A DNA stretch of 64,000 nt from Escherichia phage OLB35. Below, piece after piece: positions 13,157 through 51,710 of the stretch. Each line of letters starts with the position of its first letter. Position 1 is the stretch's first letter. Below the pieces are notes generated by a model. The model was not told the DNA's origin, made no database searches, and saw only the letters and a program-made list of their open reading frames with translations. The stretch lies in the sequence record MH992122.1. One strand, written 5' to 3'. Position numbers and translations under genes: made by a program.

Positions 13157-14440
13157 ATGAGTAAAATCCAAAAATTATTGCGTGAATCTACAACGTCTAC
13201 TAGCAACTCAATTGGTCGCCCAAATCTCGTTGCTTTGACTCGCGCTACGACTAAATTAATATATTCTGACATTGTAGCAACACAAAGAACTAATCAACCT
13301 GTTGCTGCTTTTTATGGTATTAAATATCTTAACCCAGACAACGAATTAACGTTTAAAACTGGTGCTACTTATGCAGGTGAAGCTGGATATGTAGACCGAG
13401 AAAAAATTACCGAGCTCACAGAAGAATCAAAAGCCACACTAAATAAAGGTGATTTTTTCAAATATAATAATATCGTTTATAAAGTGTTAGAAGATACACC
13501 ATTTGCAGATATTCAGGAAAGTGATCTAGAATTAGCTCTTCAGATTGCGGTCGTTCATTTAAAGGTACGGCTATTTTCAGATGCAGCGGTAACAAGCAAA
13601 TTTGAAAGCTCTGGTAGCGAAATTTCTGATGCAAGATTCCAGATTAATAAATGGCAAACTTCAGTCAAATCTCGTAAACTTAAAACTGGCCTCACGGTTG
13701 AATTAGCGCAAGATTTAGAAGCGAATGGATTTGATGCCCCTAACTTCTTAGAAGATTTGCTTGCTACTGAAATGGCTGATGAAATTAATAAAGATATTCT
13801 TCAGTCTTTAATTACTGTATCGAAACGTTATAAAGTTACTGGAATTACTGACACCGGATTTATTGACTTGAGCTATGCTTCCGCTCCAGAAGCAGGTCGT
13901 TCGTTATATCGAATGGTGTGTGAAATGGTATCACACATTCAAAAAGAGTCAACTTATACTGCAACGTTTTGCGTAGCTTCAGCTCGTGCAGCTGCTATTC
14001 TTGCTGCTTCAGGTTGGTTAAAACATAAACCAGAAGATGATAAGTATCTTTCACAAAATGCTTATGGATTCTTGGCAAATGGATTACCTCTTTACTGCGA
14101 TACTAACAGTCCATTAGATTATGTGATCGTTGGCGTAGTAGAAAATATCGGCGAAAAAGAGATTGTAGGGTCCATCTTTTATGCTCCATACACTGAAGGA
14201 ATGGATTTAGACGACCCGGAACATGTCGGTGCATTTAAAGTTGTAGTTGATCCGGAAAGCTTACAACCGTCTATAGGTTTATTGGTTAGATATGCTTTAT
14301 CAGCAAATCCTTACACAGTAGCAAAAGATGAAAAAGAAGCGAGAGTAATTGATGGCGGGGACATGGATAAAATGGCAGGACGTTCAGACTTGTCTGTTTT
14401 ACTCGGTGTTAAATTGCCTAAAATTATTATAGATGAATAA
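13157..14440 (+). CDS. 24: Capsid vertex protein gp24
   Basis: 427 aa as in T4; late promoter TATAAATA at 13123. Confidence 0.95.
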   Translation: MSKIQKLLRESTTSTSNSIGRPNLVALTRATTKLIYSDIVATQRTNQPVAAFYGIKYLNPDNELTFKTGATYAGEAGYVDREKITELTEESKATLNKGDFFKYNNIVYKVLEDTPFADIQESDLELALQIAVVHLKVRLFSDAAVTSKFESSGSEISDARFQINKWQTSVKSRKLKTGLTVELAQDLEANGFDAPNFLEDLLATEMADEINKDILQSLITVSKRYKVTGITDTGFIDLSYASAPEAGRSLYRMVCEMVSHIQKESTYTATFCVASARAAAILAASGWLKHKPEDDKYLSQNAYGFLANGLPLYCDTNSPLDYVIVGVVENIGEKEIVGSIFYAPYTEGMDLDDPEHVGAFKVVVDPESLQPSIGLLVRYALSANPYTVAKDEKEARVIDGGDMDKMAGRSDLSVLLGVKLPKIIIDE

Positions 14441-36136: not shown

Positions 36137-36469
36137 TCACTTATAAAGACACGGAATAGCTTTATAGTGGCATGTTACGAATTTCTGTTTAATTTCTTTA
36201 GGTTGTTTAAGTCCCAAAGCCACAAATGGATGTGGAACATTTCGAATTTGTCCAACTGGTAGTGGAGTCAAATCACCGACTTCAACAAAACCTTCAGGAA
36301 CATCAGGACCTACAGAATGAACTACACATAGTTCAGGAACTTCACCTTGAACACGTTTACCAATCACAAGTCCTGATTCGGTAACTTCTTCATCACCTGC
36401 TTGAGCGGGTTCAGAAACCAGAATGACATATTCACCAACAGCACGAATTGGGAGTTGTACTTCAGACAT
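36137..36469 (-). CDS. 31: Co-chaperonin gp31 (GroES analogue)
   Basis: 110 aa (T4 111); position between rIII and cd. Confidence 0.9.
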
Positions 36470-36526
36470 CTTATTTCCTTGTTGTTTGACGATAGATTAA
36501 TAATACCATACTATTCGTAAAGCATA

Positions 36527-36835
36527 TTACATAAGAAGCAAACGTTCGACCGGAGTACCATCAACCGAAATTACTTTATCAAGGCGGAAAGAACGCCACT
36601 GACCTAACTTGGTATCGAATGCTCGAACTGATTCACGAGGTTCAGAACGAACTTCTGTTGATGGGTTACTATTTTCATATTTGACTTCAAGTTCATCGCG
36701 CGAAGCAAACATCGTACGAACATCACCGTTAGCCTTTTCAAATACAACACAATGAACGCCTACAGACAGAATAGTTTTAATACGTTCACGAAGAACCATA
36801 GTTTCTTGTTCAGTTAAAATCATATTATTCACCAC
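36527..36835 (-). CDS. Hypothetical protein (31.1-like position)
   Basis: 102-aa ORF between cd and 31. Confidence 0.6.
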   Translation of the reverse strand: MVNNMILTEQETMVLRERIKTILSVGVHCVVFEKANGDVRTMFASRDELEVKYENSNPSTEVRSEPRESVRAFDTKLGQWRSFRLDKVISVDGTPVERLLLM

Positions 36836-37406
36836 AAAAGTTTCGGATTTGTTCCCAATTCAGAGAACGAAGATTATTACGAGAGTACTGAATTACTTCA
36901 ATACCAGCTTGTTTTAGAATATCTGCCCAATTTTCAGGAGATCGGTCGTATAATTCTGCGTATACGACCTTTTTAATACCTGACTGCGTAATAGCTTTAG
37001 TACAATCAGGACATGGAGAAAGCGTCGTATATAACGTAGCACCTTCAATAGAATTACCTTTACGAGCGGCAAACAAAATTGCATTCAATTCTGCATGGAT
37101 TTCATTATTAGCAGACCATGCACTATGAGCAGCTCGATGTTCTTTGGCTAAAACAAAATTATCTACCCGTCCAAATGCTGTAGTGCCTTCTTTATGTCCA
37201 GCAACGATGACCGGACTTGGTTTATTCTTCAACCAACCATTTTCAGATGCATGTTCGCAACAGTTAACGCCACCTGCAGGTGAACCGTTATATCCAGTAG
37301 AGATAATGCGTCCATCTTTTTCAATGACGGCACCAACTTTCCATGAACAACATTTTGATTCTTGAGAAATCAGATATGCAATCTGAAGGTATGTGCTAGC
37401 TTTCAT
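36825..37406 (-). CDS. cd: dCMP deaminase
   Basis: 193 aa as in T4; zinc-binding deaminase motifs HAE and PCPDC. Confidence 0.95.
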   Translation of the reverse strand: MKASTYLQIAYLISQESKCCSWKVGAVIEKDGRIISTGYNGSPAGGVNCCEHASENGWLKNKPSPVIVAGHKEGTTAFGRVDNFVLAKEHRAAHSAWSANNEIHAELNAILFAARKGNSIEGATLYTTLSPCPDCTKAITQSGIKKVVYAELYDRSPENWADILKQAGIEVIQYSRNNLRSLNWEQIRNFCGE

Positions 37407-38398
37407 TATTGAACCTTATTAATATAAGTTAACAGCTCTTTAGTTTGTTCCCAACTGATGCACGCATCGGTAACGGAAACGCCATAGGACATATTATTAG
37501 AAATTTTTTGATTTCCTTCATGTAGGAACGATTCTATCATAATTCCTTTGACCAAATCATTAGCTGCTAAATTTTTACCAATACCAATTTGATTGCTATA
37601 ATGCCCATCAGCGTTTGCATGGCTACAGTCAACCATTACATAATGATTCAGACCTACTGCCCTTGCTTTGTTAGAAGCTTCTTGAATATCAGAAGAATGA
37701 TAGTTCGGGCCGTTGGTCCCGCCACGCAATACGATATGCGTATTCTGATTACCTTCAGCTTCAACAATGCCTACAGTACCATCGACGTCCATACCCATAT
37801 ACCGATGAGGCCAGGCGGCACTATACATCGCGTCTGTAGCTACTTTAATAGAACCATTGGTTGCGTTCTTGAAGCCTACGCACATCGGTAGACCCGAAGC
37901 AATTTCACGATGTGTCTGACTTTCAGTCGTACGGGCGCCAATAGCAACCCATGAGAAAATACCAGAAAGATACTTAATCGTGAATGGGTCTAATACTTCA
38001 GTTGCTAATGGAAGTCCCATACGTAGAAGTTTACGACACAATGTTCGTGCAACTATAAGACCGTGGTTCATATCAAAACTTCCGTCAAGATATGGATCAT
38101 TTACAAGACCTTTCCAACCTACGGTAGTTCGAGGCTTTTCAAAATAAACGCGCATCACTAACAGAACATTAGGAAGACGAGTTTGAAGTTCAGCCAGACG
38201 TTTGCCGTATTCAACCGCAGCAATAGGGTCATGAATTGAACAAGGACCTACAACAATAAGTTTGCGTGGGTCTTCACCGTTCATAATCGAATTAACTTGT
38301 TCGCGATGAGAAGCCACTTGTGATGCGTAAGCTTCCGACAAAGGAATAATCTCAGCCAGTTCTTTTGGAGAAATAAGTTTTCCGACGACAGGTAACAT
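37406..38398 (-). CDS. 3-deoxy-7-phosphoheptulonate (DAHP) synthase, class I (AroG/AroF-like)
   Basis: 330 aa; long collinear blocks match E. coli AroG as recalled: LIVVGPCSIHDP, VMRVYFEKPRTTVGWKGL, AIGARTTESQTHRE, VGFKN.T.G.IKVA, ILRGG..PNY, and the C-terminal HEGNQ...SITDACI.WE.T; stop overlaps the cd start (TAATG). Confidence 0.9.
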   Translation of the reverse strand: MLPVVGKLISPKELAEIIPLSEAYASQVASHREQVNSIMNGEDPRKLIVVGPCSIHDPIAAVEYGKRLAELQTRLPNVLLVMRVYFEKPRTTVGWKGLVNDPYLDGSFDMNHGLIVARTLCRKLLRMGLPLATEVLDPFTIKYLSGIFSWVAIGARTTESQTHREIASGLPMCVGFKNATNGSIKVATDAMYSAAWPHRYMGMDVDGTVGIVEAEGNQNTHIVLRGGTNGPNYHSSDIQEASNKARAVGLNHYVMVDCSHANADGHYSNQIGIGKNLAANDLVKGIMIESFLHEGNQKISNNMSYGVSVTDACISWEQTKELLTYINKVQ

Positions 38399-38518
38399 AA
38401 CAATCCTTAGGAGATATAAACAGATTCTGATTCAACAATACCTTTAACCGGATTAGACAGGCTAAGTTGGTAGTGCTCAGATTTATGACCATTCTCGATA
38501 GTAATGAGATAGCTCTCA

Positions 38519-38755
38519 TTATAGTGTTCCATATACTCGAGTTGCTTCAACAAGACCATCACTGCCTAATTTAAGATTAGTAATTTGGTCACCATCTTTA
38601 GGATTAACGATTATGAGAAAAGAACGTGGAGATTCTTGAATAACTCGTAATGTTGCATCCTGGAAACGTTCAGACACTTTATTGATGAGTGCTTGAGCAA
38701 ATTCTTTTACTTTAATCTGAAATTCGTGTACTGTAATTGGATTTTCACTTAGCAT
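38519..38755 (-). CDS. Hypothetical protein (cd.x-like island)
   Basis: 78-aa ORF; early promoter motif 38773-38802 upstream. Confidence 0.5.
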   Translation of the reverse strand: MLSENPITVHEFQIKVKEFAQALINKVSERFQDATLRVIQESPRSFLIIVNPKDGDQITNLKLGSDGLVEATRVYGTL

Positions 38756-38772
38756 TTCAATTTCCTCATTGT

Positions 38773-38802
38773 TGGTAGAGTCATCATATCACAACTCTAC
38801 GG
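38773..38802 (-). promoter_or_regulatory. Early-type promoter (GTTTAC / TATGAT)
   Basis: GTTTAC, 18-nt spacer, TATGAT upstream of the ORF starting at 38755. Confidence 0.5.
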
Positions 38803-38812
38803 TGTTGTAAAC

Positions 38813-39088
38813 TTAAATTGCAAAACATTTAATTTCTTGTGAATCGAAATCAACTTCACACTGAATTACTAGTTCAGCATCAAGACCAAACACAACAATC
38901 ACATGAGCCGAGCTGGGCAACAATGTAACAGACACAGAATCCACTTGGTCAGGCACCAGAGTATTCAAAACGTAGAGTAGTTCAGAGTGGACCTTAAGCT
39001 CGGTAGCAGTATCCAGCTTATCAAAGAAATGATTTGCGATAATCTGACTAAAAACGACCTTTACAATTTCAGAATATTTAGGGAACAT
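38813..39088 (-). CDS. Hypothetical protein (cd.x-like island)
   Basis: 91-aa ORF. Confidence 0.5.
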   Translation of the reverse strand: MFPKYSEIVKVVFSQIIANHFFDKLDTATELKVHSELLYVLNTLVPDQVDSVSVTLLPSSAHVIVVFGLDAELVIQCEVDFDSQEIKCFAI

Positions 39089-39095
39089 AATTACC

Positions 39096-39320
39096 TCAGT
39101 GTACAGTATTTACTTTAACTCTAACGACAAATTGCTCGGTCGGTTCGCCTACAGGAACAAACTCTACATGATATTCGCCTTTGTAACGAGTATTCAGGTC
39201 GTTACGAATTTCGGTAAGCTTGTTGATTAATGTAGAACTCATATTAAGTCCTACTAATTTACGAAGCATTTTGTATGCTTCATCTTCGATTTCATGATGT
39301 TTATCGTACATAATTTTCAT
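39096..39320 (-). CDS. Hypothetical protein (cd.x-like island)
   Basis: 74-aa ORF. Confidence 0.5.
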   Translation of the reverse strand: MKIMYDKHHEIEDEAYKMLRKLVGLNMSSTLINKLTEIRNDLNTRYKGEYHVEFVPVGEPTEQFVVRVKVNTVH

Positions 39321-39491
39321 TTAACCATTCAATTGCCTGGTCGACGTTATCAAATATACCACCGTCCAAACGTTCTTCATGCTCATAGTCCAGCACATCA
39401 ATACCGAACTGTCCATTTACTAAAGGCCAGGCTACAAACAAATATTCTTTATGCTGTTCGATGGCCTCAATCACTTCATATAATCGTTTCA

Positions 39492-39492
<1 letters not shown>
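39301..39492 (-). CDS. Hypothetical protein (cd.x-like island)
   Basis: 63-aa acidic ORF immediately downstream of pseT. Confidence 0.5.
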
Positions 39493-40578
<1,086 letters not shown>

Positions 40579-40579
<1 letters not shown>

Positions 40580-40878
40580 TATTTTATTCCTAAGAAAGTT
40601 TCAAGAATACGAATGTTATGCTCGCGTCGGTCTTTATTAATTTCAGCAACGTTTTTATTAATTGACGTACTTCTAACGTTTGAAGAAATAAATTTAATCA
40701 TATGACTTTTGAGTTGTTGCAAATCCAACCCTTTTTCTTTAGCAGCTTTACGAAGAGCTTTACCTGCTTCATCTAGTGCCTTTGCAGCATCTTTGTCATA
40801 ATTGTCAAGTGACGTTCCACGGCAGATATCAATATACTCATCAGACCGTTTTATGTAATTCTCTAGTAATGTTTTCAT
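40579..40878 (-). CDS. Hypothetical protein
   Basis: 99-aa ORF; consensus early promoter 40907-40936 upstream. Confidence 0.5.
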
Positions 40879-40906
40879 TTAGATTTCCTCAATTATCCAT
40901 AGGAGC

Positions 40907-40936
40907 ATTATACTCTGCTCCCGAGAGTTTGTAAAC
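40907..40936 (-). promoter_or_regulatory. Early-type promoter (GTTTAC / TATAAT)
   Basis: GTTTAC, 18-nt spacer, consensus TATAAT upstream of the ORF starting at 40878. Confidence 0.6.
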
Positions 40937-41160
40937 TATTTTACTAAAGATTCGATATACTCATGAAGAGCTTTAGTCGCTACTGCCCACTTGTTCTGAT
41001 ATTCATTTTTCAGATTAGCACGAGACTGAACTAACAAGCGGTCATTAGTCGGAGGCAAAGATTCTAATCGTTGAATCTGGCGCCCATAAATCATAGCCGC
41101 CATTTCAGATTCATAGATAAGCCCTTTAATGTATTCATGCTGTTCTTTAGTCATTGGCAT
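40936..41160 (-). CDS. Hypothetical protein
   Basis: 74-aa ORF. Confidence 0.5.
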   Translation of the reverse strand: MPMTKEQHEYIKGLIYESEMAAMIYGRQIQRLESLPPTNDRLLVQSRANLKNEYQNKWAVATKALHEYIESLVK

Positions 41161-41441
41161 TTTTCCTCTTTTAAACCACTACGATAATAACATAACATAG
41201 TCTTCTGGTCATGTACATATCTTTTTACGTCGTTTAACCAGATACGAAATTCTTGAGAGTCTTCAAATGGCATTCCAACCCATGGATTACCATCAATAAC
41301 CTTTACTTGCCATTTCTGGTTATATTCAACAATAGATTCAGGCCATTGCGGATGTAAAGTTTCTTTAGGGCTTAAGGGCACATCCTGGGCACATCCAGCC
41401 AAAATACCAATAGATAATACAACTGCGGCTAATTTAATCAT
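41151..41441 (-). CDS. Outer-membrane spanin (o-spanin, Rz1-like lipoprotein)
   Basis: Signal peptide with lipobox LAGC at residues 15-18 (MIKLAAVVLSIGILAGCAQ); overlaps the upstream i-spanin gene. Confidence 0.7.
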   Translation of the reverse strand: MIKLAAVVLSIGILAGCAQDVPLSPKETLHPQWPESIVEYNQKWQVKVIDGNPWVGMPFEDSQEFRIWLNDVKRYVHDQKTMLCYYRSGLKEEKCQ

Positions 41442-41794
41442 TCTGAGAGCTTCCTGAGGTCTTCTGCAAAGGAATCGAAGGACCTGTTGATTTGTTTTTC
41501 GACCAATCCTGGCTTACTTGCCACCACGTTCTTCTTCTTCGAATCCTTACGGAGCTTTTCATTTTCAGCCTTAAGTTGGTCAACTAAAACACGGTTCTTA
41601 TAAGTCATTTCTTCGATTGACTGATATTGAACTTTGAAGTCGTCTAATACTTTAGCATTGTTTTTAGCAGCCTCTTTAACAGAGGCTAATTCAGTATTCA
41701 ACGAATCAACTTTGTTGTTTAAGACAACTATTGTTACCGTAGAAACTAGAGCAAAAGCTGCTACTATAGCATAAATCGGATTTACTTTAAGCAT
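41438..41794 (-). CDS. Inner-membrane spanin (i-spanin, Rz-like)
   Basis: N-terminal transmembrane helix (IYAIVAAFALVSTVTIVVL) followed by a charged coiled-coil-like periplasmic region; adjacent lipoprotein partner. Confidence 0.7.
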   Translation of the reverse strand: MLKVNPIYAIVAAFALVSTVTIVVLNNKVDSLNTELASVKEAAKNNAKVLDDFKVQYQSIEEMTYKNRVLVDQLKAENEKLRKDSKKKNVVASKPGLVEKQINRSFDSFAEDLRKLSE

Positions 41795-42282
41795 GTTTTA
41801 ATAATCTCAATGATTTCATCTCGGGATAATCCATTGATAAGAACGGTTTTCAAACCATCACACTGGATTTTGTACGATTCAAACATTACACACAACTCTT
41901 CTGCTGTATGATACGGGCTTGAAATTCCGAGACGGTTGAATTTGTCGGTAAGAGGGTCGCAAATGATGTAGAATTTTATACCTGCGATATGTACGTTTGG
42001 TTGACTAATATTAATGAACACATTAGCGTCATATTTAGTCAAATTGTTTTGAAGAAATTCAACCATGGCATTAACCGCTTCCGGCATTGCTTCACGTTTT
42101 TCTTCAGCGTATCGAGTAGAATACTCTTTTTGTTTTACTTTCTTTTTAAGATTTTTGGCCAGTGTAACACGGAGGTCAGTAAGATAACCAACCGGACGTC
42201 CTTTCTTAAAGACTCGGATTCCGTCAGTTGTGTCTCCAAAAGCGGTTACGACCATATCGTTAGTAATCAATTGCATATTCAT
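41782..42282 (-). CDS. alc: Alc (inhibitor of host transcription on cytosine-containing DNA)
   Basis: Start placed at the internal Met (MNMQLITND...), giving 167 aa as in T4 Alc; lies between rnlA and the spanins. Confidence 0.85.
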   Translation of the reverse strand: MNMQLITNDMVVTAFGDTTDGIRVFKKGRPVGYLTDLRVTLAKNLKKKVKQKEYSTRYAEEKREAMPEAVNAMVEFLQNNLTKYDANVFINISQPNVHIAGIKFYIICDPLTDKFNRLGISSPYHTAEELCVMFESYKIQCDGLKTVLINGLSRDEIIEIIKTCLK

Positions 42283-42312
42283 AATTTTCTCCTCGTGTTG
42301 TTGATAAAAGCC

Positions 42313-42342
42313 ATAGTAACACCATCCTTGGTGTTTGTAAAC
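42313..42342 (-). promoter_or_regulatory. Early-type promoter (GTTTAC / TACTAT) for alc
   Basis: Lies across the rnlA stop, upstream of the alc start at 42282. Confidence 0.55.
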
Positions 42343-42344
42343 CA

Positions 42345-43478
<1,134 letters not shown>

Positions 43479-43495
43479 TCAGTTAGTTTTTTTAA

Positions 43496-43525
43496 ATTGT
43501 ACCACAATCCTTGTGGTATGTAAAC
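43496..43525 (-). promoter_or_regulatory. Early-type promoter (GTTTAC / TACAAT) for rnlA
   Basis: GTTTAC overlaps the denA stop codon; 18-nt spacer; TACAAT. Confidence 0.55.
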
Positions 43526-43935
43526 TACTTTTTCTTATGTTGGATATTCCAAGGCGGGTTGAACTTTTTGATAAAAAGCGGTTCTTCAAGGTCCATTGTT
43601 GCGATGGTCATTGAACCAAGTTCGTTGGTGACTGAAAGGTCAAAACATTGGCGGGCCCAGAATTCAACCTTTTTGCCTTGCATTAAGGCATCCAAAATCA
43701 TAAGTGATTTTCTTGAATCTGAAGTCTGGTCTTTTCGATTTATGGCTGTTCGATAATAGTTAATGCGTTTCTTTAAATTCTTGGTTTTACCAATATACAC
43801 AAGTTCGTCATCTATAGCAATAGCGTATATGACATTTTTCTTATTAGGGGCATCAATGGTTTTAATTGTTGCATCTTCTAATAGCTCCAATTCTATATAT
43901 TTAATAAAGGAATATTCGGCGGCAATATCTTTCAT
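43525..43935 (-). CDS. denA: Endonuclease II (DenA)
   Basis: 136 aa as in T4; GIY-YIG-like segment VYIGKT. Confidence 0.9.
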   Translation of the reverse strand: MKDIAAEYSFIKYIELELLEDATIKTIDAPNKKNVIYAIAIDDELVYIGKTKNLKKRINYYRTAINRKDQTSDSRKSLMILDALMQGKKVEFWARQCFDLSVTNELGSMTIATMDLEEPLFIKKFNPPWNIQHKKK

Positions 43936-43943
43936 AATAAAGT

Positions 43944-43957
43944 GGGACCGAAGTCCC
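43944..43957 (-). terminator. Hairpin GGGAC-UUCG-GUCCC between nrdB and denA
   Basis: 5-bp stem with tetraloop in the 26-nt intergenic gap. Confidence 0.45.
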
Positions 43958-43961
43958 GTCC

Positions 43962-45140
43962 TTAGAAATATTTTTTGTATGAATTGATTACATTTTGGTC
44001 TACATCATTATCAATTTGTGCGACAAGATAAGAACTGATTTCAACTTCCTGAGGAGCTGCTTGAACTAAATCGGAGTTCAGATATTCACGAATCCAAGGA
44101 TAAGGATGTTTGGTCGGAGCATCAGTAATTGGACACGGCAAACCACACTGTTTCATACGAGACACAGTCAAGTAATCAACAAAAGCACACATACTCTGTG
44201 TATTGATACCTGGACATGTACCGTCTTTAAAGAGGTGTGCAGCCCATTCCTTCTCTTGACTATTTACTTCCATAAAAATGTCAACTGCTTCTTGTTCACA
44301 TTCTTTAGCAATTTGAACCCACTCATCGCCATCAGTACCAGATTGAAGTTGACGGATAATGTATTGAGTACCCTTGAGATGGAGTTGTTCGTCACGAGCA
44401 ATGAACTTCATAATCTTTGCATTGCCTTCCATAATTTCCATATTTTTATGGAAGTTGAAAGTACATGCGAAAGATACATAAAAACGAATAGCTTCCAAGG
44501 CGTTGATAACATGCAAACAGAGATAAAGAGACTTCATTAGGTCATGTTTACATTCTTCCATGTGCATAAGACTATTTGAATATGCATCTAAATCATATTC
44601 GTTTTCGGAAAAACACTTAAAAATTTCTTTAGCATTTTCCCATTCACGGGTTTTAATCAGAACGTCATCATAATAACGTCCAATGGATTCAGCTCGTTTC
44701 ATAATAGCTTCATCTAATACAATTTCATCAAATACCTTCGATGGATCGGTATAAAGATTTCGCATAATATGAGTATACGAACGAGAGTGAATAGTTTCAC
44801 TGAATGTCCATGTTGCGACCCATGTATCTAATGAAGGGTCAGAAATAAGTGCCATAAGTACCGCAGATGGGGCCCTGCCTTGGATAGAATCTAATAATGA
44901 TTGATACTTAAGATTGTTTGTAAAGATGTCCTGTTGGAACTGAGGAAGCTTATTGAACTGCGCAGAGTCCAACATCAAGTTTACCTCTTCTGGGCGCCAG
45001 AAAAATGACAAGGATTTTTCTATAAGTTCTTCGAAAACTTTATGACGCTGAATATCATATCGTGCGAGGCCAAGACCAGAACCAAAGAACATCGGTTCAT
45101 TCAAAACATCGACTTGTTGCGTGTTAAAAACTGTACTCAT
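43962..45140 (-). CDS. nrdB: Ribonucleotide reductase small subunit NrdB (uninterrupted)
   Basis: 392 aa continuous ORF (T4 NrdB 388 aa). Confidence 0.95.
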   Translation of the reverse strand: MSTVFNTQQVDVLNEPMFFGSGLGLARYDIQRHKVFEELIEKSLSFFWRPEEVNLMLDSAQFNKLPQFQQDIFTNNLKYQSLLDSIQGRAPSAVLMALISDPSLDTWVATWTFSETIHSRSYTHIMRNLYTDPSKVFDEIVLDEAIMKRAESIGRYYDDVLIKTREWENAKEIFKCFSENEYDLDAYSNSLMHMEECKHDLMKSLYLCLHVINALEAIRFYVSFACTFNFHKNMEIMEGNAKIMKFIARDEQLHLKGTQYIIRQLQSGTDGDEWVQIAKECEQEAVDIFMEVNSQEKEWAAHLFKDGTCPGINTQSMCAFVDYLTVSRMKQCGLPCPITDAPTKHPYPWIREYLNSDLVQAAPQEVEISSYLVAQIDNDVDQNVINSYKKYF

Positions 45141-45194
45141 TATATTTTCTCACTTAGTTATAACTCATCCATGAGTAAATTATAATCAAAAGTC

Positions 45195-47450
45195 TTAAAG
45201 CTTACAAGCAGAACAATCTTCAGCTTTAGGTGTTTCTAATTCATAGTCATCTGTACCTGACCCATCACGAGTGTTATGATAGTAGAGGTTTTTTCCGCCA
45301 AAGTACCAGAAGTAAAGCAGATCGTCAAGCATTACTGACATTGGCACTTTACCTTTCTCAAATACTGCAGGGTCATAGTAAGTATTAGCAGAAGCAGATT
45401 GGCACACCCATTTCAACATGATAGCAACTTGGGTCAAATAAGGTTTATTACCTTTCTTAGCAAGTTTCCACGCATAGTCGTAAAGACTCATGTTATGTTC
45501 GATATTAGGAACAACCTGTCGGAAGTTGCCTTCTTTAGATTCTTTAATACTTACTGGACCGCGTGGTGGCTCTATACCGTTTGTGCTATTTGAGACTTGA
45601 CTGCTTGACTCACAAGGCATGAGTGCAGACAACGTTGAGTTACGAATTCCGTGTTCTTTGAGTTCAGCTCGAAGTTCTTCCCAGTCGCAGACGTAGTTCG
45701 GGGCTGCGATTTGGTCAATCTTTTTATTGTACCAGTCGATAGGTAATTCGCCTCTAGACCATTTAGTGTCTGAATAATACTCACAACGTCCTTTTTCTTT
45801 GGCGAGTTTGATTGATGCTTTGATAAGGCCATATTGCAATCTCTCGAACAATTCATGAGTCAAATCGTTAGCGTCTTCATATGAAGCAAAGTTAGAAGCT
45901 AACCATGCAGCATAGTTCGTCACACCGACACCGAGATTTCGACGTTTTTTAGCTTTTAAAGCTTCTGGGACCGGATAATCTTGATAGTCTAACAGGTTAT
46001 CAAGTGCACGTACTTGTACTTCGGCCAGTTCATTAATTTTATCTTGGTCTTGCCAATCAAATTTATCTAATACAAAAGCGGATAACGTGCATAAACCAAT
46101 TTCAGCATCAGGGCCATTCACATCATTAGTTGGAATAGCGATTTCACAACATAAGTTACTCTGACGAATTGGAGCTTTTTCACGAATAAATGGAGTGTAG
46201 TTATTCGTGTTATCAACAAACTGTGGATAAATTCGAGCAGTACCAGAACGTTCAGTCATGAACAATTCAAAGAGTTCTAGTGCTTTGATTCTTTTCTTTC
46301 TGATTGTTGGGTCTTTTTCAGCTTTCTCATAAAGCTCACGGAATTTATCTTGATCTTCAAAGAACGAGTAATATAGTTCGCCTGACATTTCGTGAGGGCT
46401 AAATAAAGTAATATAATCATTTTTGCCAAGGCGTTCCATCATGAGGTCATTAATCTGAATTCCATAGTCCATATGTCGAATACGGTTTTCATCCACGCCT
46501 TTGTTATTTTTCAGAACTAATAGGTTCTCTACTTCTAAGTGCCACATCGGATAATACGCTGTAGCAGCACCACCACGAATACCGCCTTGAGAACAAGATT
46601 TTACTGCAGTTTGGAAATGCTTCCAGAATGGAATAACACCCGTATGTCGAACTTCACCCATACCGATCTTAGAACCTTCTGCACGAAGCATACCAACGTT
46701 GATACCGATACCAGCTCGTTTAGAAATATATTCAATAATTGATGCCGAAGTTTTGTTAATAGATTTTAACGAATCGCCGGCTTCAATAACTACACAACTA
46801 GAGAACTGGCGAGTTGGAGTACGAGCACCTGCCATAATTGGAGTAGGCAATGAAACTTGATGAGTAGAAACGGCATCATAAAAACGAATAATATGTTTCA
46901 AACGGTCATGAGTTTCGTCTTGATGTAAGGCCATACCGATAGCCATGATAGCAAACTGTGGAGTTTCATAAATCTTCCCAGTTGTTTTATCTTTAACCAG
47001 GTATTTTTCTTTAAGCTGCATAGCACCAGCATAAGTCAGATCAAAATCTCGCTCATGTTTAATCCGAGAATCAAGATAAATGATTTCTTCTGCAGAATAT
47101 CTAGATAACAACTCAGGATCATATTTGCCTTCATTAACACAATACGAGATATGGTCGATAAAAGCAGGAGGTTCAAACTGACCATACACATCTTTACGAA
47201 GTGCAAACATTAATCCTTTAGCGGCAACATATTGATAATCAGGTTCTTCAACAGAAATCGAGTTAGCTGCAACTTTAATACAAATCTTCTGAATATCTTT
47301 GGTGCTCATCCCGTCAACAAGATGGGTCTTAATTTCTTCGTATAATTCATATGGGTCGATTTGTGTTCCTTCACACTGCCAAGTTAAGACTTGAATAATT
47401 TTCTGTGCATCAAAATTTTGGGATACACCACTGCTCTTAGTTACTTGCAT
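45195..47450 (-). CDS. nrdA: Ribonucleotide reductase large subunit NrdA
   Basis: 751 aa (T4 754). Confidence 0.95.
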   Translation of the reverse strand: MQVTKSSGVSQNFDAQKIIQVLTWQCEGTQIDPYELYEEIKTHLVDGMSTKDIQKICIKVAANSISVEEPDYQYVAAKGLMFALRKDVYGQFEPPAFIDHISYCVNEGKYDPELLSRYSAEEIIYLDSRIKHERDFDLTYAGAMQLKEKYLVKDKTTGKIYETPQFAIMAIGMALHQDETHDRLKHIIRFYDAVSTHQVSLPTPIMAGARTPTRQFSSCVVIEAGDSLKSINKTSASIIEYISKRAGIGINVGMLRAEGSKIGMGEVRHTGVIPFWKHFQTAVKSCSQGGIRGGAATAYYPMWHLEVENLLVLKNNKGVDENRIRHMDYGIQINDLMMERLGKNDYITLFSPHEMSGELYYSFFEDQDKFRELYEKAEKDPTIRKKRIKALELFELFMTERSGTARIYPQFVDNTNNYTPFIREKAPIRQSNLCCEIAIPTNDVNGPDAEIGLCTLSAFVLDKFDWQDQDKINELAEVQVRALDNLLDYQDYPVPEALKAKKRRNLGVGVTNYAAWLASNFASYEDANDLTHELFERLQYGLIKASIKLAKEKGRCEYYSDTKWSRGELPIDWYNKKIDQIAAPNYVCDWEELRAELKEHGIRNSTLSALMPCESSSQVSNSTNGIEPPRGPVSIKESKEGNFRQVVPNIEHNMSLYDYAWKLAKKGNKPYLTQVAIMLKWVCQSASANTYYDPAVFEKGKVPMSVMLDDLLYFWYFGGKNLYYHNTRDGSGTDDYELETPKAEDCSACKL

Positions 47451-47537
47451 ATATTCCTCAGTATAGGTTGATAGACATTACTCCAAACGGGATAGTATTT
47501 ATCCCGTTAATTTATTATACACTTTTAAACTGAAGCG

Positions 47538-47792
47538 TTAATTATTCTTAGCAATAATTTCTTTGTATTCTTTAGGTGTCAAGACTGTGATATCGAAATA
47601 AACCAATGGTTCTTTTTCCATACCGTAACCACCACAAAATTCACGATATTCATAAATTCGTTCATGTGAATAACAAATGAATCGTTCACCTTTAACTGTG
47701 ATTTCACTATTCGGTGAAGGGATATCTAGTTCGGTAGGATTTTTCATTTCAAAAATTGTGGTACCATATGAATTAATAAAACGTAAAATCAT
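47538..47792 (-). CDS. Hypothetical protein (nrdA.x-like)
   Basis: 84-aa ORF between td and nrdA. Confidence 0.5.
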   Translation of the reverse strand: MILRFINSYGTTIFEMKNPTELDIPSPNSEITVKGERFICYSHERIYEYREFCGGYGMEKEPLVYFDITVLTPKEYKEIIAKNN

Positions 47793-48653
47793 TTATACCG
47801 CCATTTTAGCTTTGATAGTTGGATGAGATTCGTAATTTTTAAGAACGAAATCAGAATGTGTCATCGTTCCAGTAACCCAGTCCATTTGGATTTTTGTAGG
47901 CCAATTCTCAAAATTACTAGGCCAATTAATTTCAAGAGAACACAACTCTTTAGGTTCACGACGAAGAACTTCTTTGCATTGTTCTACATGATTGCTGTAG
48001 ATATGCGTGTTGCCGCCTGAGAACACTAAATCACCTGGGATAAGGTTACACATCTTCGCTACAATATGCGTCAAGGCAGCGTATGAGGCAATGTTGAACG
48101 GCAGGCCCAAGAAAACATCTACACTGCGTTGATACCATTGTAAATCAAGATGCCCATTACGCACATTGAACTGATAGAACATGTGGCAAGGAGGAAGAGC
48201 CATTTGATTTATTTCGGCCGGATTCCAGGCAGAAACAATTTGACGACGATCAGTTGGTAATTTTTTAATACTGTTGATTGTTTCAACTAATTGGTCCACA
48301 CCACCGAAATCACGCCATTGTTTACCATATATAGGACCAAGTTCGCCGCTATGATATCCAAGGTCTTTTGCCTGATTTTCATAGTTGTCGTCCCAAATAG
48401 TTTTACCTTCAATTAGACTACCATGAGTACGAAGACGTAATTCATTAACATTAGTAGAACCGGACATGAACCACAATAACTCGGCAATACAAGCTTTCCA
48501 TGCTAATTTCTTAGTTGTTACTGCAGGGAATCCTTTAGTCAGGTCCCAACGTAATTTAGTTCCGAACAGAGCAATTGTTCCTGTGCCTGTACGGTCGTCT
48601 GTTTCGTAACCGTTTTCAAGGATATTTTTAATTAAATCTTGGTATTGTTTCAT
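47793..48653 (-). CDS. td: Thymidylate synthase (uninterrupted)
   Basis: 286 aa, the same length as spliced T4 Td; continuous ORF. Confidence 0.95.
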   Translation of the reverse strand: MKQYQDLIKNILENGYETDDRTGTGTIALFGTKLRWDLTKGFPAVTTKKLAWKACIAELLWFMSGSTNVNELRLRTHGSLIEGKTIWDDNYENQAKDLGYHSGELGPIYGKQWRDFGGVDQLVETINSIKKLPTDRRQIVSAWNPAEINQMALPPCHMFYQFNVRNGHLDLQWYQRSVDVFLGLPFNIASYAALTHIVAKMCNLIPGDLVFSGGNTHIYSNHVEQCKEVLRREPKELCSLEINWPSNFENWPTKIQMDWVTGTMTHSDFVLKNYESHPTIKAKMAV

Positions 48654-48666
48654 TTAGCACCTATAA

Positions 48667-49880
<1,214 letters not shown>

Positions 49881-49908
<28 letters not shown>

Positions 49909-50123
49909 TCAGCTTTAAACGATTCAACATCAGAGTGGTAAATCCAGAATCCTGCACTTTCACCATCTTCATAGAGTGGACATCCATCGCATTCATCTTC
50001 CCAACCCATATCGCGTAAAAGATGTTCAGCTTTTTCAACAAGTTCAGCGTCTTTACCGACGATGTTGAAGTACCATTTACCTCTAACTTCAGAATCTTTG
50101 ATGCTCTGGCGTTGCAATCTCAT
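49881..50123 (-). CDS. Hypothetical protein (frd.2-like)
   Basis: 80-aa ORF. Confidence 0.5.
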
Positions 50124-50186
50124 TTTATTCTCCTCTTCACTTTTATTTGATAGGGCTACTATAACATAACCCTATCTTGTTATAAA

Positions 50187-50579
50187 CTACTTTTTAAAAG
50201 TTTTTTGCAAAAGTTTGATGATTTCGTCGACGTTGGTTTCATCTACGATACAATGGATTTTTGTTACACCTAAAGTTATACCTTCGTTAGTAGGTTGAGG
50301 CTTTACTAAATCTACCTCAATAAAGTATTTGAACTCGTCAGGATAAATCTCAAAATAAGTTTCAATTTCACCACCGGCAGAACATACAGTACCATCTTCC
50401 ATAGTTACACTTACTACGTTTGACGTATCGCTATCATAATCAGGTTCCATTCCGTTTACAACAAAACTAGGCCCGTGGAGTTCAATTAATTTTAACATCT
50501 TAGCGTTATTGTGTGGTGCTTCTTGAACAAAGTCGTCTTTAAATAAAGGGTTAATGATATAAGATTTTCCGATTTCCAT
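50187..50579 (-). CDS. Hypothetical protein (frd.3-like)
   Basis: 130-aa ORF preceded by early promoter 50609-50637 and a GAGGA SD. Confidence 0.55.
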   Translation of the reverse strand: MEIGKSYIINPLFKDDFVQEAPHNNAKMLKLIELHGPSFVVNGMEPDYDSDTSNVVSVTMEDGTVCSAGGEIETYFEIYPDEFKYFIEVDLVKPQPTNEGITLGVTKIHCIVDETNVDEIIKLLQKTFKK

Positions 50580-50608
50580 TTTGATTTCCTCATGTTGTTG
50601 ATAAGTCT

Positions 50609-50637
50609 ATACTAACACATCCAGGGAAGAAGTAAAC
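50609..50637 (-). promoter_or_regulatory. Early-type promoter (GTTTAC / TAGTAT) for the frd.3-like unit
   Basis: GTTTAC, 17-nt spacer, TAGTAT, followed by leader with GAGGA SD. Confidence 0.55.
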
Positions 50638-50668
50638 AACTTTTTCGGCAATTTACAGATACTCAAAA

Positions 50669-50686
50669 GGGAGACCGAAGTCTCCC
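50669..50686 (-). terminator. Terminator GGGAGAC-UUCG-GUCUCCC after gene 32
   Basis: Minus-strand hairpin followed by UUUUGAGUAU. Confidence 0.7.
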
Positions 50687-50692
50687 AATTTA

Positions 50693-51592
50693 TTATAGAC
50701 CAGCTAACAGGTCATCAAGGTCGCCATCATCAGAAGACGAGGAACTCATGAAGTCATCTTCAGTTTTTGCAGAACTAAAGGCTTCCATGTCTTTATCAAA
50801 ATCGTCAAGGTCAGAAGCAACTTTATCTGCAACAGAAGCTGCTGCGGCTGCTGCACCACCAAGAGCGGCAGTACCAAGAACCTTAGCGAAAGATTCATTT
50901 AATTTTTCAAAGGATTTGAACTGGTCTTTAGCCGTCAAAGTAGTAAGGTCTACCATCTGGTCGTATAGTTCTTTCTGGAATGCTTCGTCATTAATACGAG
51001 GAATTTCAGATTGACCCAAGAATTTAGATTCGTCATAGTTGCTAAAACCAGAAACCTGCTTAGCTTTCAGAACGAAGTTAGCACCTTCAAACGGACAAGT
51101 AACATCAACTGGAGTTTCACCCATTTCGGTATCAACTGCAATCATTGCATTGATTTTGTCCCAAATCTTTTTACCGAAACGATATTTAAATACTTTACCT
51201 TCGTTATCTGGAGCTTGAGGGTCTTTAACAACCAGAATATTAGCCCAATAAGAAGTTTTACGTTTCAGTTGAGAATATTCAGTTTTGTTGGTATTGTACA
51301 GGTCATTTTTACTAATGTACTGACATACAGGACAAGAGTCGTAATCACCATGTGTAGAAGAGCAATTTTCAATATACCATTTACCATTTTTCTTGAAACC
51401 GTGGTTAACAAGAATTGCAAATGGTAGTGCATCATCAGTTTTTGCTGGCAAGAAACGAATTACCGCTTGACCATTACCTGATGCATCTAGCTTCAGCTTC
51501 CATTCGCCTTTATCTTCTGAAGAGAAACCTTTGTTACCGTTCAGTTTAGCCATTTGAGCAGCGAGGTCAGCAGTAGATTTACGTTTAAACAT
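50693..51592 (-). CDS. 32: Single-stranded DNA-binding protein gp32
   Basis: 299 aa (T4 301); acidic C-terminal tail; structured AU-rich leader upstream. Confidence 0.95.
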
Positions 51593-51663
51593 GGATTATT
51601 ACCTTTTATTTAGATTATTTAATTTATTTACAGTTGGTTGCTACGACACTTATACCTCGTAGC
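51593..51663 (-). promoter_or_regulatory. Gene 32 mRNA leader: hairpin plus AU-rich (U)UAAA-repeat tract, candidate autogenous translational operator
   Basis: 6-bp stem GCUACG/CGUAGC (51640-51645 with 51658-51663); then about 45 nt of AU-rich leader CUGUAAAUAAAUUAAAUAAUCUAAAUAAAAGGUAAU before the ATG. Confidence 0.55.
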
Positions 51664-51710
51664 TGGTATGATTTATTTATAAAGTAATTTTAACACACAA
51701 GAAATAAAGC

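Follow-up and report, generated by a model that had tools for sequence, protein, structure and literature searches.

The minus strand of Escherichia phage OLB35 (MH992122.1), of which a stretch of 64,000 nucleotides (the window) was analyzed, carries a gene for DAHP synthase (DAHPS), the entry enzyme of the shikimate pathway, between the T4-type genes cd.2 and cd. This raises the question of what such an enzyme does in a phage genome and how its gene came to be there. The reading frame of 330 codons described in the original prediction was recovered exactly; since reading frames were called from the earliest start codon that follows a stop, an in-frame start further upstream was ruled out. The genes and signals at the locus are the following:

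36825 to 37406, minus strand: cd, dCMP deaminase of 193 amino acids, a resident RB69-type allele (95% amino acid and 94.7% nucleotide identity to RB69).
37406 to 38398, minus strand: DAHPS gene, 330 amino acids, class I-alpha, AroF-like, with an ATG start.
38404 to 38408, minus strand: putative Shine-Dalgarno sequence AAGGA, seen 5 nucleotides 5' of the DAHPS ATG.
38519 to 38755, minus strand: resident cd.2 (DUF7320), with 94.5% nucleotide identity to RB69 cd.2.

The assignment to the class I DAHP synthases was confirmed by Pfam, by NCBIfam and by matches to solved structures. The search with the Pfam profile DAHP_synth_1 (PF00793), which had been proposed as a check, gave a strongly significant match far beyond chance, covering residues 36–323 (E = 4.2e-75; 252.6 bits, cutoff 25.5), and the protein scored 427.8 bits with the NCBIfam equivalog model for aroFGH (TIGR00034; cutoff 173.2). 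The motifs quoted beforehand are present apart from two one-residue slips, the protein reading HIVLRGG and not ILRGG, and SVTDACISWE and not SITDACI.WE. E. coli AroG had been named as the closest match, but according to the NCBIfam subfamily models the closest characterized isozyme is AroF, the tyrosine-sensitive type: the protein passed the AroF-like model NF009395 (455 bits, cutoff 343) and stayed under the cutoffs of the AroG-specific (363 vs. 568 bits) and AroH-specific (386 vs. 463 bits) models. Also among the solved structures E. coli AroF (6AGM) was the best sequence match (E = 4e-105). [quoted passage not shown]

Structure prediction confirmed the fold. The AlphaFold model (pLDDT 91.6) gave TM scores of 0.93–0.95 to E. 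coli AroG, NmeDAH7PS and the DAHPS of F. tularensis; AroG (solved as PDB 1KFL and 1QR7) has the same fold, with a score of 0.95 for 1KFL. The predicted structure includes a (beta/alpha)8 barrel and the beta6a/beta6b hairpin, with strands at residues 198–203 and 209–214. Residues 1–10 were modelled as coil, and the N-terminal extension is 8–9 residues shorter according to the model and the alignment.

The active site, which the original prediction had singled out for checking, was found intact and not degenerate. Every full-length phage copy shares all 15 residues inspected (AroG numbering). The metal ligands Cys61, His268, Glu302 and Asp326 are invariant in the window protein and all its full-length phage homologues, and the same is true of the PEP/E4P residues Arg92, Lys97-Pro-Arg-Thr100, Glu143, Gly163-Ala-Arg165, Lys186 and Arg234. 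Across the phage clade, KPRT is conserved to 98%. With such an active site the enzyme would convert PEP and E4P into DAHP and Pi in a metal-dependent reaction.

The gene is kept under purifying selection, dN/dS being 0.14–0.20 across six genera; the unsaturated pair Entb_45/PEi26 gave an omega of 0.16 at a dS of 0.62. [quoted passage not shown] The codon usage is thus phage-like, as had been suggested, and argues against a recent host capture.

The phage DAHPS gene as such was already known and is mostly annotated among the relatives. Whether close relatives carry and annotate it had been left open beforehand; full-length ORFs in 212 phage records, a protein family (PHROG 5045) and a published mention now show that they do. 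PHROG 5045 is the phage DAHPS family, and the window protein matches it over its full length (E = 6e-182). The window shares 99% identity with complete genomes of Mosigvirus, and 139 Mosigvirus records have the gene at an identity of at least 95%, most of them annotating it; the annotated "phospho-2-dehydro-3-deoxyheptonate aldolase" of several of these phages is 99.7% identical to the window protein. Five further T4-like genera of the Straboviridae (Kanagawavirus, Kagamiyamavirus, Marfavirus, Winklervirus and Bragavirus) have DAHPS in the same slot, pseT–cd.x–DAHPS–cd, with proteins 58–77% identical to that of the window. The members of PHROG 5045 are otherwise alike, but in Mosigvirus DAHPS directly abuts cd and follows a foreign cd.2 remnant, a feature specific to this genus. 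In a paper from 2025, DAHPS was flagged as an auxiliary metabolic gene (AMG) in the Klebsiella Kanagawavirus KLB31 (PMC11845039); a literature search for biochemical or genetic studies of phage DAHPS found none. The AMG interpretation agrees with the present data, the gene being of host type, flanked in a phage genome by cd, cd.2, pseT and gene 31, under selection, and phage-like in its codons. T4, RB69 and about ten other Mosigvirus records lack the gene, and therefore any benefit of it must be conditional. In the T4 record the position is taken by cd.1 to cd.5, as had been stated beforehand. What is added here to the known gene is a remodelled effector pocket in every phage copy and a cassette structure with the foreign cd.2 remnant.

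The feedback-inhibition site was likewise among the proposed checks, and proved to be remodelled and accompanied by a short N-terminal arm. The pocket changes (AroG numbering) are P150 to I, Q151 to K, D155 to G, S180 to P and F209 to Y; K and P stand in the window protein for the effector-contacting Gln151 and Ser180, I and G for the supporting Pro150 and Asp155, and the canonical set is absent. D146 is unchanged, as are P147 and G211, which are of AroF type. At the N-terminus, the counterparts of AroF residues 2–10 are missing. Every phage-type sequence has K or R at 151, P at 180 and G or N at 155, whereas the 97 nearest bacterial hits all carry Q151 and, apart from one with T180, S180. Similarly, 48–52 residues precede Cys61 in the phage-type sequences and at least 58 in the nearest bacterial hits. 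Within the phage clade the pocket segment (AroG 144–159) is 97% conserved, compared to 75% for the whole protein.

Several of these positions are known from laboratory variants. P150L, S180F and changes at Q151 make AroG resistant to phenylalanine, and tyrosine-insensitive AroF has resulted from replacement of Gln152 or deletion of Ile11, the N-terminal arm of AroF contributing to feedback inhibition; AroG D146N and AroF P148L are also feedback-resistant. The phage enzyme is altered at 150, 151 and 180, and its N-terminal truncation covers the stretch preceding AroF Ile11. It differs from the laboratory variants in that these carry L, A/I and F where the phage enzyme has I, K and P, which together with D155G are fixed clade-wide. 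In AroF of C. glutamicum, the variants Q159A and S188F were not inhibited by 50 µM tyrosine; single pocket substitutions made this enzyme less stable or less active, and expression of D163A failed. The phage enzyme would therefore have to carry compensating changes.

A pocket unique to the phages was considered and rejected. In a 50%-identity representative library of 150 class I-alpha sequences non-canonical pockets were frequent, Q151 being present in 83, S or T180 in 100 and the combination of K/R151 with P180 in two. Such a pocket is therefore no proof of deregulation. Judged from the residues involved, the remodelled pocket together with the short N-terminus most likely makes the enzyme insensitive to tyrosine, phenylalanine and tryptophan. 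The hyper-conservation of the pocket and the retained regulatory hairpin fit a pocket that is in use, possibly with another ligand, and equally one that is locked open. There is a slim chance that the conserved pocket (VLDPFTIKYLSGIFSW, GLPM, with Lys for the effector-contacting Gln) is an allosteric site re-purposed for a non-aromatic ligand, which may be an anionic or a phage-specific metabolite; if so, entry into the shikimate pathway would be tied to some signal that reflects the state of the infected cell and not to the levels of aromatic amino acids.

Independent acquisitions of DAHPS by phages were mostly uninformative as a test of convergent pocket loss. In the contigs labelled "Acinetobacter phage MD-2021a" the neighbours are the bacterial genes cobS/cobT and clpS/clpA, and the "Bacteriophage sp." gut contigs are unverified and their neighbours bacterial-looking. 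The sole genuine case, Aeromonas phage HJ05, lacks Q151, D155 and S180, but has a long N-terminus.

The placement of the gene in a nucleotide-metabolism operon, as the original prediction had it, is loosely right. On the same strand, nrdAB, td and frd lie 5.5–11 kb upstream, td (47793–48653) and frd (49004–49621) about 9–11 kb, but the immediate neighbours are mixed: cd, cd.x genes of no known role, pseT (RNA repair) and gene 31 (co-chaperonin). Also the overlap with cd exists, the DAHPS stop TAA (37408–37406) and the cd ATG (37406–37404) having one base in common in TAATG. The link to dCMP deaminase that had been read from it did not hold, the overlap being generic T4-type packing: the cd.2/cd junction of RB69 has an identical TAATG, and T4 cd.1 overlaps cd by 4 nucleotides. 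DAHPS and cd are not adjacent in Winklervirus, Kagamiyamavirus and Bragavirus, where one or two small ORFs lie between them.

One candidate promoter was found between cd.3 and cd.2:

38783 to 38811, minus strand: sigma-70/T4-early-type promoter-like site, TTTACA and TATGAT separated by 17 nucleotides, with TG; a pattern match only.

The regional counts of sigma-70 promoters and terminators were not above those in shuffles, and the site carries weight only because the T4 record has an early promoter marked at the corresponding place. As far as the pattern can tell, the site is a likely driver of cd.2–DAHPS–cd transcription. The minus strand from 36137 to 51673 had no late-promoter motif, and the regional scan found no terminator-like site on that strand. 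DAHPS lies within the prereplicative early/middle block of the minus strand, and therefore is probably expressed early in infection.

As for the role of the gene, we infer that the phage DAHPS is probably, though by no means certainly, an active, early-made and feedback-insensitive entry enzyme that keeps the shikimate flux going in infection. [quoted passage not shown] A single phage gene would be enough, because the enzyme is flux-controlling and the remaining six shikimate enzymes would be supplied by the host. Transcribed by the phage, DAHPS would escape repression by TyrR and TrpR, and would keep or raise the chorismate flux after the shut-down of host gene expression, and with it the supply of aromatic amino acids and chorismate-derived cofactors.

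The enzyme could also be active and still under allosteric regulation, either through a modified binding of aromatics or by another metabolite of the pathway (chorismate or prephenate, for instance). The phage would then gain enzyme dose and freedom from TyrR and TrpR without feedback insensitivity. Such continued regulation is possible but rather unlikely. The strong conservation of the pocket segment, the retained hairpin and the kept D146, P147 and G211 are in line with it, as is the variation of the pocket residues in natural enzymes of class I-alpha, of which many are presumably under regulation; however, four positions have changed together at which one substitution alone weakens or abolishes inhibition of the E. 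coli or C. glutamicum enzymes, and the N-terminal arm is truncated. The selected product might alternatively be chorismate-derived cofactors, chiefly folate via p-aminobenzoate, and not aromatic amino acids. Folate would then supply the phage thymidylate synthase, dCMP-modifying enzyme and DHFR, and the adjacency of DAHPS and cd, with td and frd further upstream on the same strand, would be explained. We regard this as unlikely, even though chorismate does feed the folate branch: folates are catalytic cofactors of which small amounts suffice, unrelated small ORFs stand between DAHPS and cd in three genera, and the slot is a general insertion hotspot, with cd.1 in T4 and nothing in RB69. Because of the intervening ORFs and the hotspot, the adjacency of DAHPS and cd carries little functional information.

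A sink for PEP and E4P, or a shifted phospho-sugar specificity (e.g. for arabinose-5-phosphate in DNA sugar modification), is very improbable. PF00793 does include KDO8P synthases, which use arabinose-5-phosphate, and Mosigviruses do make arabinosylated DNA, but the residues binding E4P and PEP, including KPRT, are unchanged, and the aroFGH equivalog cutoff was passed. A role in arabinosyl DNA modification in particular was rejected, since RB69 has arabinosyl-modified DNA without a DAHPS gene and two papers on the modification pathway do not mention DAHPS. Hardly any credence is given to a functionless passenger or decaying remnant in a recombination hotspot. The gene is dispensable, as its absence from T4, RB69 and others shows, and it has a gene remnant as its neighbour in a mosaic region; against this stand the low dN/dS in six genera, the invariant catalytic residues, the full-length ORF in 212 records, the fully ameliorated codons and the confidently predicted fold.

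The gene itself is a routine annotation of modest importance. T4-like cyanophages carry single-enzyme AMGs, e.g. the transaldolase talC and psbA, which are copies of flux-limiting host enzymes. The concept is the same here, one host-derived control-point enzyme with the rest of the pathway left to the host, but here the enzyme opens the shikimate pathway and the hosts are Enterobacterales, and DAHPS makes a clean non-marine, enterobacterial T4-like example of a single enzyme at a flux-controlling biosynthetic step. If the feedback insensitivity is true, one phage protein would override both the transcriptional and the allosteric host control of aromatic biosynthesis. In that case the phage clade would also provide metabolic engineering with natural DAHP synthases that are both stable and feedback-resistant; such enzymes have long been sought, and laboratory mutants changed at a single site often suffer in stability or activity. 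The pairs of Mosigviruses with the RB69-type empty site and with DAHPS make the fitness effect directly testable.

The phage DAHPS clade was monophyletic in 200 of 200 neighbor-joining bootstraps. In the tree it stood beside Enterobacterales AroF, a placement found in only 30 of 200 bootstraps and thus unsupported, and the nearest bacterial proteins, from several phyla and including Enterobacterales AroF, were about 50–55% identical to it. The gene was probably captured anciently by a T4-like phage lineage and then transferred as a cassette among T4-like genera, the variable slot between cd.2 and cd serving as the landing place of this accessory cassette. In Mosigvirus the cassette is delimited by these features:

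38407 to 38532, minus strand: ORF of 41 amino acids, left over from the 3' half of a cd.2 gene of foreign (Kanagawavirus/Marfavirus-type) origin, identified by Pfam and BLASTP.
38504 to 38522, minus strand: left cassette junction, with the resident cd.2 stop TAA, then ATGAGAGCTA, then donor cd.2.
37391 to 37409, minus strand: right cassette junction, at which the stop codon of DAHPS and the start codon of cd overlap (TAATGAAAGCTAGCACAT).

The apparent spacer of 120 nucleotides 5' of DAHPS is filled by the foreign cd.2 remnant. The 41-residue ORF matched positions 44–76 of the 78 in the Pfam profile DUF7320 (28.8 bits, cutoff 27; E = 1.2e-6) and was identical to cd.2 of Entb_45 at 20 of 39 residues (BLASTP, E = 1e-7), but gave no alignment with the resident cd.2; the remnant region is identical in phiC120 at 136 of its 137 nucleotides. 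As the spacer derives from the 3' half of a cd.2 gene foreign to Mosigvirus, DAHPS came to this genus within a cassette whose source was a Kanagawavirus-like phage.

The two junctions form a direct repeat (38504–38522 and 37391–37409; 16 of 19 positions identical). Its spacing of 1113 nucleotides equals the size of the segment missing in RB69, and two-copy repeats of similar quality arise by chance in the region. The repeat was first taken for a plain duplication of cd resembling that of a target site, a view that was revised: ATGAGAGCTA at the left junction is a copy of the first ca. 10 nucleotides of cd, only this part is cd-like, and the rest belongs to the foreign cd.2 remnant. The 5' end of cd (first 46 codons) is identical at the protein level between Mosigvirus and Kanagawavirus, and is therefore a possible site of homologous crossover.

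Profile searches left no doubt about the family membership of the gene, and both the observation and the interpretation of the original prediction were upheld: the 330-aa minus-strand ORF is present, and it matched the Pfam profile DAHP_synth_1 (E=4.2e-75) and the NCBIfam aroFGH equivalog TIGR00034 (427.8 bits, cutoff 173.2), which identifies it as a class I DAHP synthase (DAHPS). The AroF-like subfamily model NF009395 was likewise exceeded (455 bits, cutoff 343), and the ORF stayed below the cutoffs of both the AroG-specific and the AroH-specific models. The closest solved structure was the Tyr-sensitive AroF of E. coli (6AGM; E=4e-105). The AlphaFold model, built with 43 homologues, was confident (pLDDT 91.6, pTM 0.91) and superposed on solved class I-alpha enzymes with TM 0.93-0.95 and an rmsd of ~1.9 A. 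The motifs quoted earlier are present apart from two single-residue slips, the actual sequences being HIVLRGG and SVTDACISWE.

37406..38398, minus strand: DAHPS gene, 330 aa, ATG start
5 nt upstream of the DAHPS ATG, minus strand: ribosome-binding motif AAGGA, from the sequence
36825..37406, downstream of DAHPS: cd, dCMP deaminase

The DAHPS stop and the cd ATG share one base, forming TAATG. This overlap is not evidence of functional coupling, since an identical TAATG is found at the cd.2/cd junction of RB69, cd.1 of T4 overlaps cd by 4 nt, and in three genera DAHPS and cd are separated by other ORFs.

DAHPS is part of a long minus-strand block; upstream of it lie alc, rnlA, denA, nrdB, nrdA, td and frd, while gene 31 and DNA ligase follow on its downstream side. 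Matches to the T4 late-promoter motif TATAAATA numbered 18 in the window, above the 7.7 expected; most are on the plus strand at 4.7-26 kb, and from 36137 to 51673 the minus strand has none. MotA-box-like middle-promoter patterns also exceeded expectation (18 against 6.5), 16 of them on the minus strand. Individual sites on the minus strand are the following.

38811-38783, minus strand: T4-early-type promoter-like site (TTTACA, 17 nt, TATGAT, with TG), between cd.3 and cd.2
39799-39775, minus strand: MotA-box-like pattern inside pseT
36524-36500, minus strand: MotA-box-like pattern just upstream of gene 31

For T4, the sequence record marks an early promoter where the first of these lies. Because the late motif is missing from this part of the minus strand, early-type and MotA-like sites are present, and a pattern scan found no terminator-like site on the minus strand, early or middle expression of DAHPS is likely. 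The window yielded no tRNA genes.

For the regulatory pocket (AroG numbering), the window protein was aligned to the three E. coli isozymes AroG, AroF and AroH, to sequences from seven phage genera and to the top 120 database hits. All 97 bacterial hits have Gln151 and Ser180 (Thr in one), and all but a few also Pro150 and Asp155. In the phage-type sequences, position 151 is Lys (once Arg), 155 is Gly (once Asn) and 150 is Ile with one exception, and every one has Pro at 180 and Tyr at 209. Their N-terminus is 8-9 residues shorter than in AroG and AroF, with 48-52 residues ahead of the metal-binding Cys compared to at least 58 in the bacterial hits. Phe-resistant AroG variants include P150L, S180F and changes of Gln151, and AroF becomes Tyr-insensitive through replacement of Gln152 or deletion of Ile11. 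In AroF of C. glutamicum, Q159A and S188F abolish inhibition at 50 uM Tyr, but at a cost in stability or activity, and expression of D163A was not achieved. Since the altered positions are sites at which single changes confer feedback resistance, we infer that phage DAHPS lacks the canonical response to Tyr, Phe or Trp.

In the wider family (150 representatives of 50% identity clusters), Gln151 was present in 83 and Ser or Thr180 in 100, and Lys or Arg151 was combined with Pro180 in two. Such non-canonical pockets rule out a pocket unique to phages, and for the same reason the pocket is no proof of deregulation. The top-scoring member of the representative library, P0121 (799 aa, 531.9 bits in total), contains two DAHPS-like stretches, which makes it a DAHPS tandem or fusion. 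The 79-kb Aeromonas phage HJ05, which is not T4-like, encodes a divergent DAHPS of 38% identity under a hypothetical annotation (OQ594355, 3899-5062). This protein retains the catalytic residues, again shows a non-canonical pocket (H151, P155, P180), and has a long N-terminal extension, with 79 residues before the metal-binding Cys.

The reading we find moderately probable is that the phage makes a catalytically intact DAHPS early, which would escape TyrR/TrpR repression and, probably, also aromatic amino-acid feedback. Because carbon flow into the pathway is set at the DAHPS step and the six host enzymes that follow it persist after infection, this gene alone would suffice to sustain chorismate and aromatic amino acids for phage protein synthesis. 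That the enzyme remains under regulation, whether by an aromatic amino acid or a different effector, is rather unlikely. The inferred loss of the canonical response is nevertheless tempered by the conservation of the altered segment (AroG 144-159), which reaches 97% in the phage clade compared to 75% over the full protein, and by the beta6a/beta6b hairpin, which the model retains; the pocket was remodelled and afterwards kept constant instead of decaying, which is equally compatible with a new ligand. Selection for chorismate-derived folate instead of amino acids is less probable still.

The active-site residues that had been proposed for checking are all intact: the 15 metal, PEP and E4P positions (C61, R92, K97, P98, R99, T100, E143, G163, A164, R165, K186, R234, H268, E302, D326; AroG numbering) are identical in the window protein and every full-length phage homologue, and we consider a carbon sink or an altered substrate very improbable. 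Eight pairwise comparisons gave dN/dS of 0.14-0.20, including the unsaturated pair Entb_45/PEi26 (dS 0.62, omega 0.16), and a functionless passenger is hardly credible.

Codon usage is phage-like, as predicted: GC3 is 0.305, compared to 0.294 +/- 0.054 in 48 window ORFs and 0.50-0.57 in E. coli aroF/G/H, and RSCU correlates at 0.87 with phage ORFs and 0.28 with the E. coli aro genes. The phage clade was monophyletic in 172 of 200 NJ bootstraps with the long-branch HJ05 and in all 200 without it. Its grouping with Enterobacterales AroF appeared in 30 of 200, and the top bacterial matches, from several phyla, reached only 50-55% identity. Phage DAHPS is an old capture, not a recent pick-up from the host.

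The original prediction left open whether relatives carry the gene. Among 50,697 phage records, tblastn located the protein in 212, most of them annotated (phospho-2-dehydro-3-deoxyheptonate aldolase, aroF or DAHP synthase I alpha); 139, at ≥95% identity, are Mosigvirus. The remaining examined records (58-77% identity) belong to five other genera: Kanagawavirus (Enterobacter, Edwardsiella), Kagamiyamavirus (EcS1), Marfavirus (Klebsiella), Winklervirus (Serratia, Erwinia) and Bragavirus (Proteus). Over the 3-kb region, many complete Mosigvirus genomes (among them CCU7, the LF82 series, phiC120, JS09 and APCEc01) match the window at 97-99% identity. Four records, two of 'Acinetobacter phage MD-2021a' (L013, L014; CAKLQH02) and two of 'Bacteriophage sp.' (L015, L016; MT837410, MT838377), have DAHPS among plainly bacterial neighbours (cobS/cobT, clpS/clpA, fadH, an AroD-like ORF); contamination with bacterial DNA or wrong binning probably accounts for these records, which inflate 'phage' DAHPS counts. 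The family corresponds to PHROG 5045 (E=6e-182), its domain is mentioned in the phiC120 genome paper, and the Kanagawavirus KLB31 homologue is listed as an amino-acid-related auxiliary metabolic gene, with a proposed role in supplying aromatic amino acids, in a 2025 paper (PMC11845039). The gene is thus already known, as an annotation and in the literature; no biochemical or genetic characterisation of a phage DAHPS was found there. The additions here, both modest, are the apparent clade-wide remodelling of the feedback pocket and a cassette fossil suggesting inter-genus transfer.

All six genera share the order pseT, cd.x ORFs, DAHPS, 0-2 small ORFs, cd, 31.x, gene 31, rIII. In T4 the slot is filled by cd.1, in agreement with the original prediction, which has only small cd.1-cd.5 ORFs here in T4, and in RB69, the type Mosigvirus, it is empty, cd.2 directly abutting cd, as in ~11 Mosigvirus-level records. 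Because the same slot holds DAHPS in six genera and other or no content in these genomes, DAHPS is a widespread but dispensable accessory gene.

From cd.2 to cd the window is 1113 bp longer than RB69; part of this is an apparent 120-nt spacer upstream of DAHPS that is filled by a small ORF.

38407-38532, minus strand: 41-aa ORF, remnant of a further cd.2 (3' half) of foreign, Kanagawavirus/Marfavirus-type origin

This ORF matched positions 44-76 of the 78 in Pfam DUF7320 (28.8 bits, cutoff 27) and the C-terminus of the cd.2 protein of Kanagawavirus Entb_45 (20/39 identical, E=1e-7), and gave no alignment with the window's own RB69-type cd.2. Its region is identical at 136 of 137 nt in phiC120, whose RefSeq record leaves it unannotated. 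On the left side, the stop codon of the resident cd.2 runs into ATGAGAGCTA, which copies the first ~10 nt of cd, and the donor cd.2 then starts at ~codon 45; AGCTA is common to the copy and the donor. The cd gene on the right side is the resident allele of RB69 type (94.7% nt); over its first 46 codons, Mosigvirus and Kanagawavirus agree fully in protein sequence. As the simplest reading, a cassette of the foreign cd.2 3' half and DAHPS would have entered an RB69-like genome, with a putative microhomology join on the left and, on the right, a putative homologous crossover at the conserved 5' end of cd. The sister position of Mosigvirus and Kanagawavirus DAHPS in the NJ tree fits this reading.

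Also cd.3 (38813-39088) departs from RB69, with 71% nt identity against ~95% in the flanking cd.2 (38519-38755) and cd (36825-37406), and the pseT-cd interval is a fine-scale mosaic even within the genus. In RB69 (NC_004928), cd at 13743-14252 encodes 169 aa, compared to 193 aa in the window, phiC120 and T4; a 1-nt indel near alignment position 495 produces the C-terminus ...ILKPSWY*, and this reflects either a genuine frameshift that truncates Cd in RB69 or a mistake in the sequencing behind the 2003 record. The minus-strand ORF at 36527-36835, downstream of cd and by position T4 31.1, encodes a WYL_2 / SH3 beta-barrel protein (PF10902, 1.9e-9; PHROG 1086). The label 'tail fiber protein' that several GenBank records give it seems to be a misannotation propagated from weak similarity to PHROG 10657.
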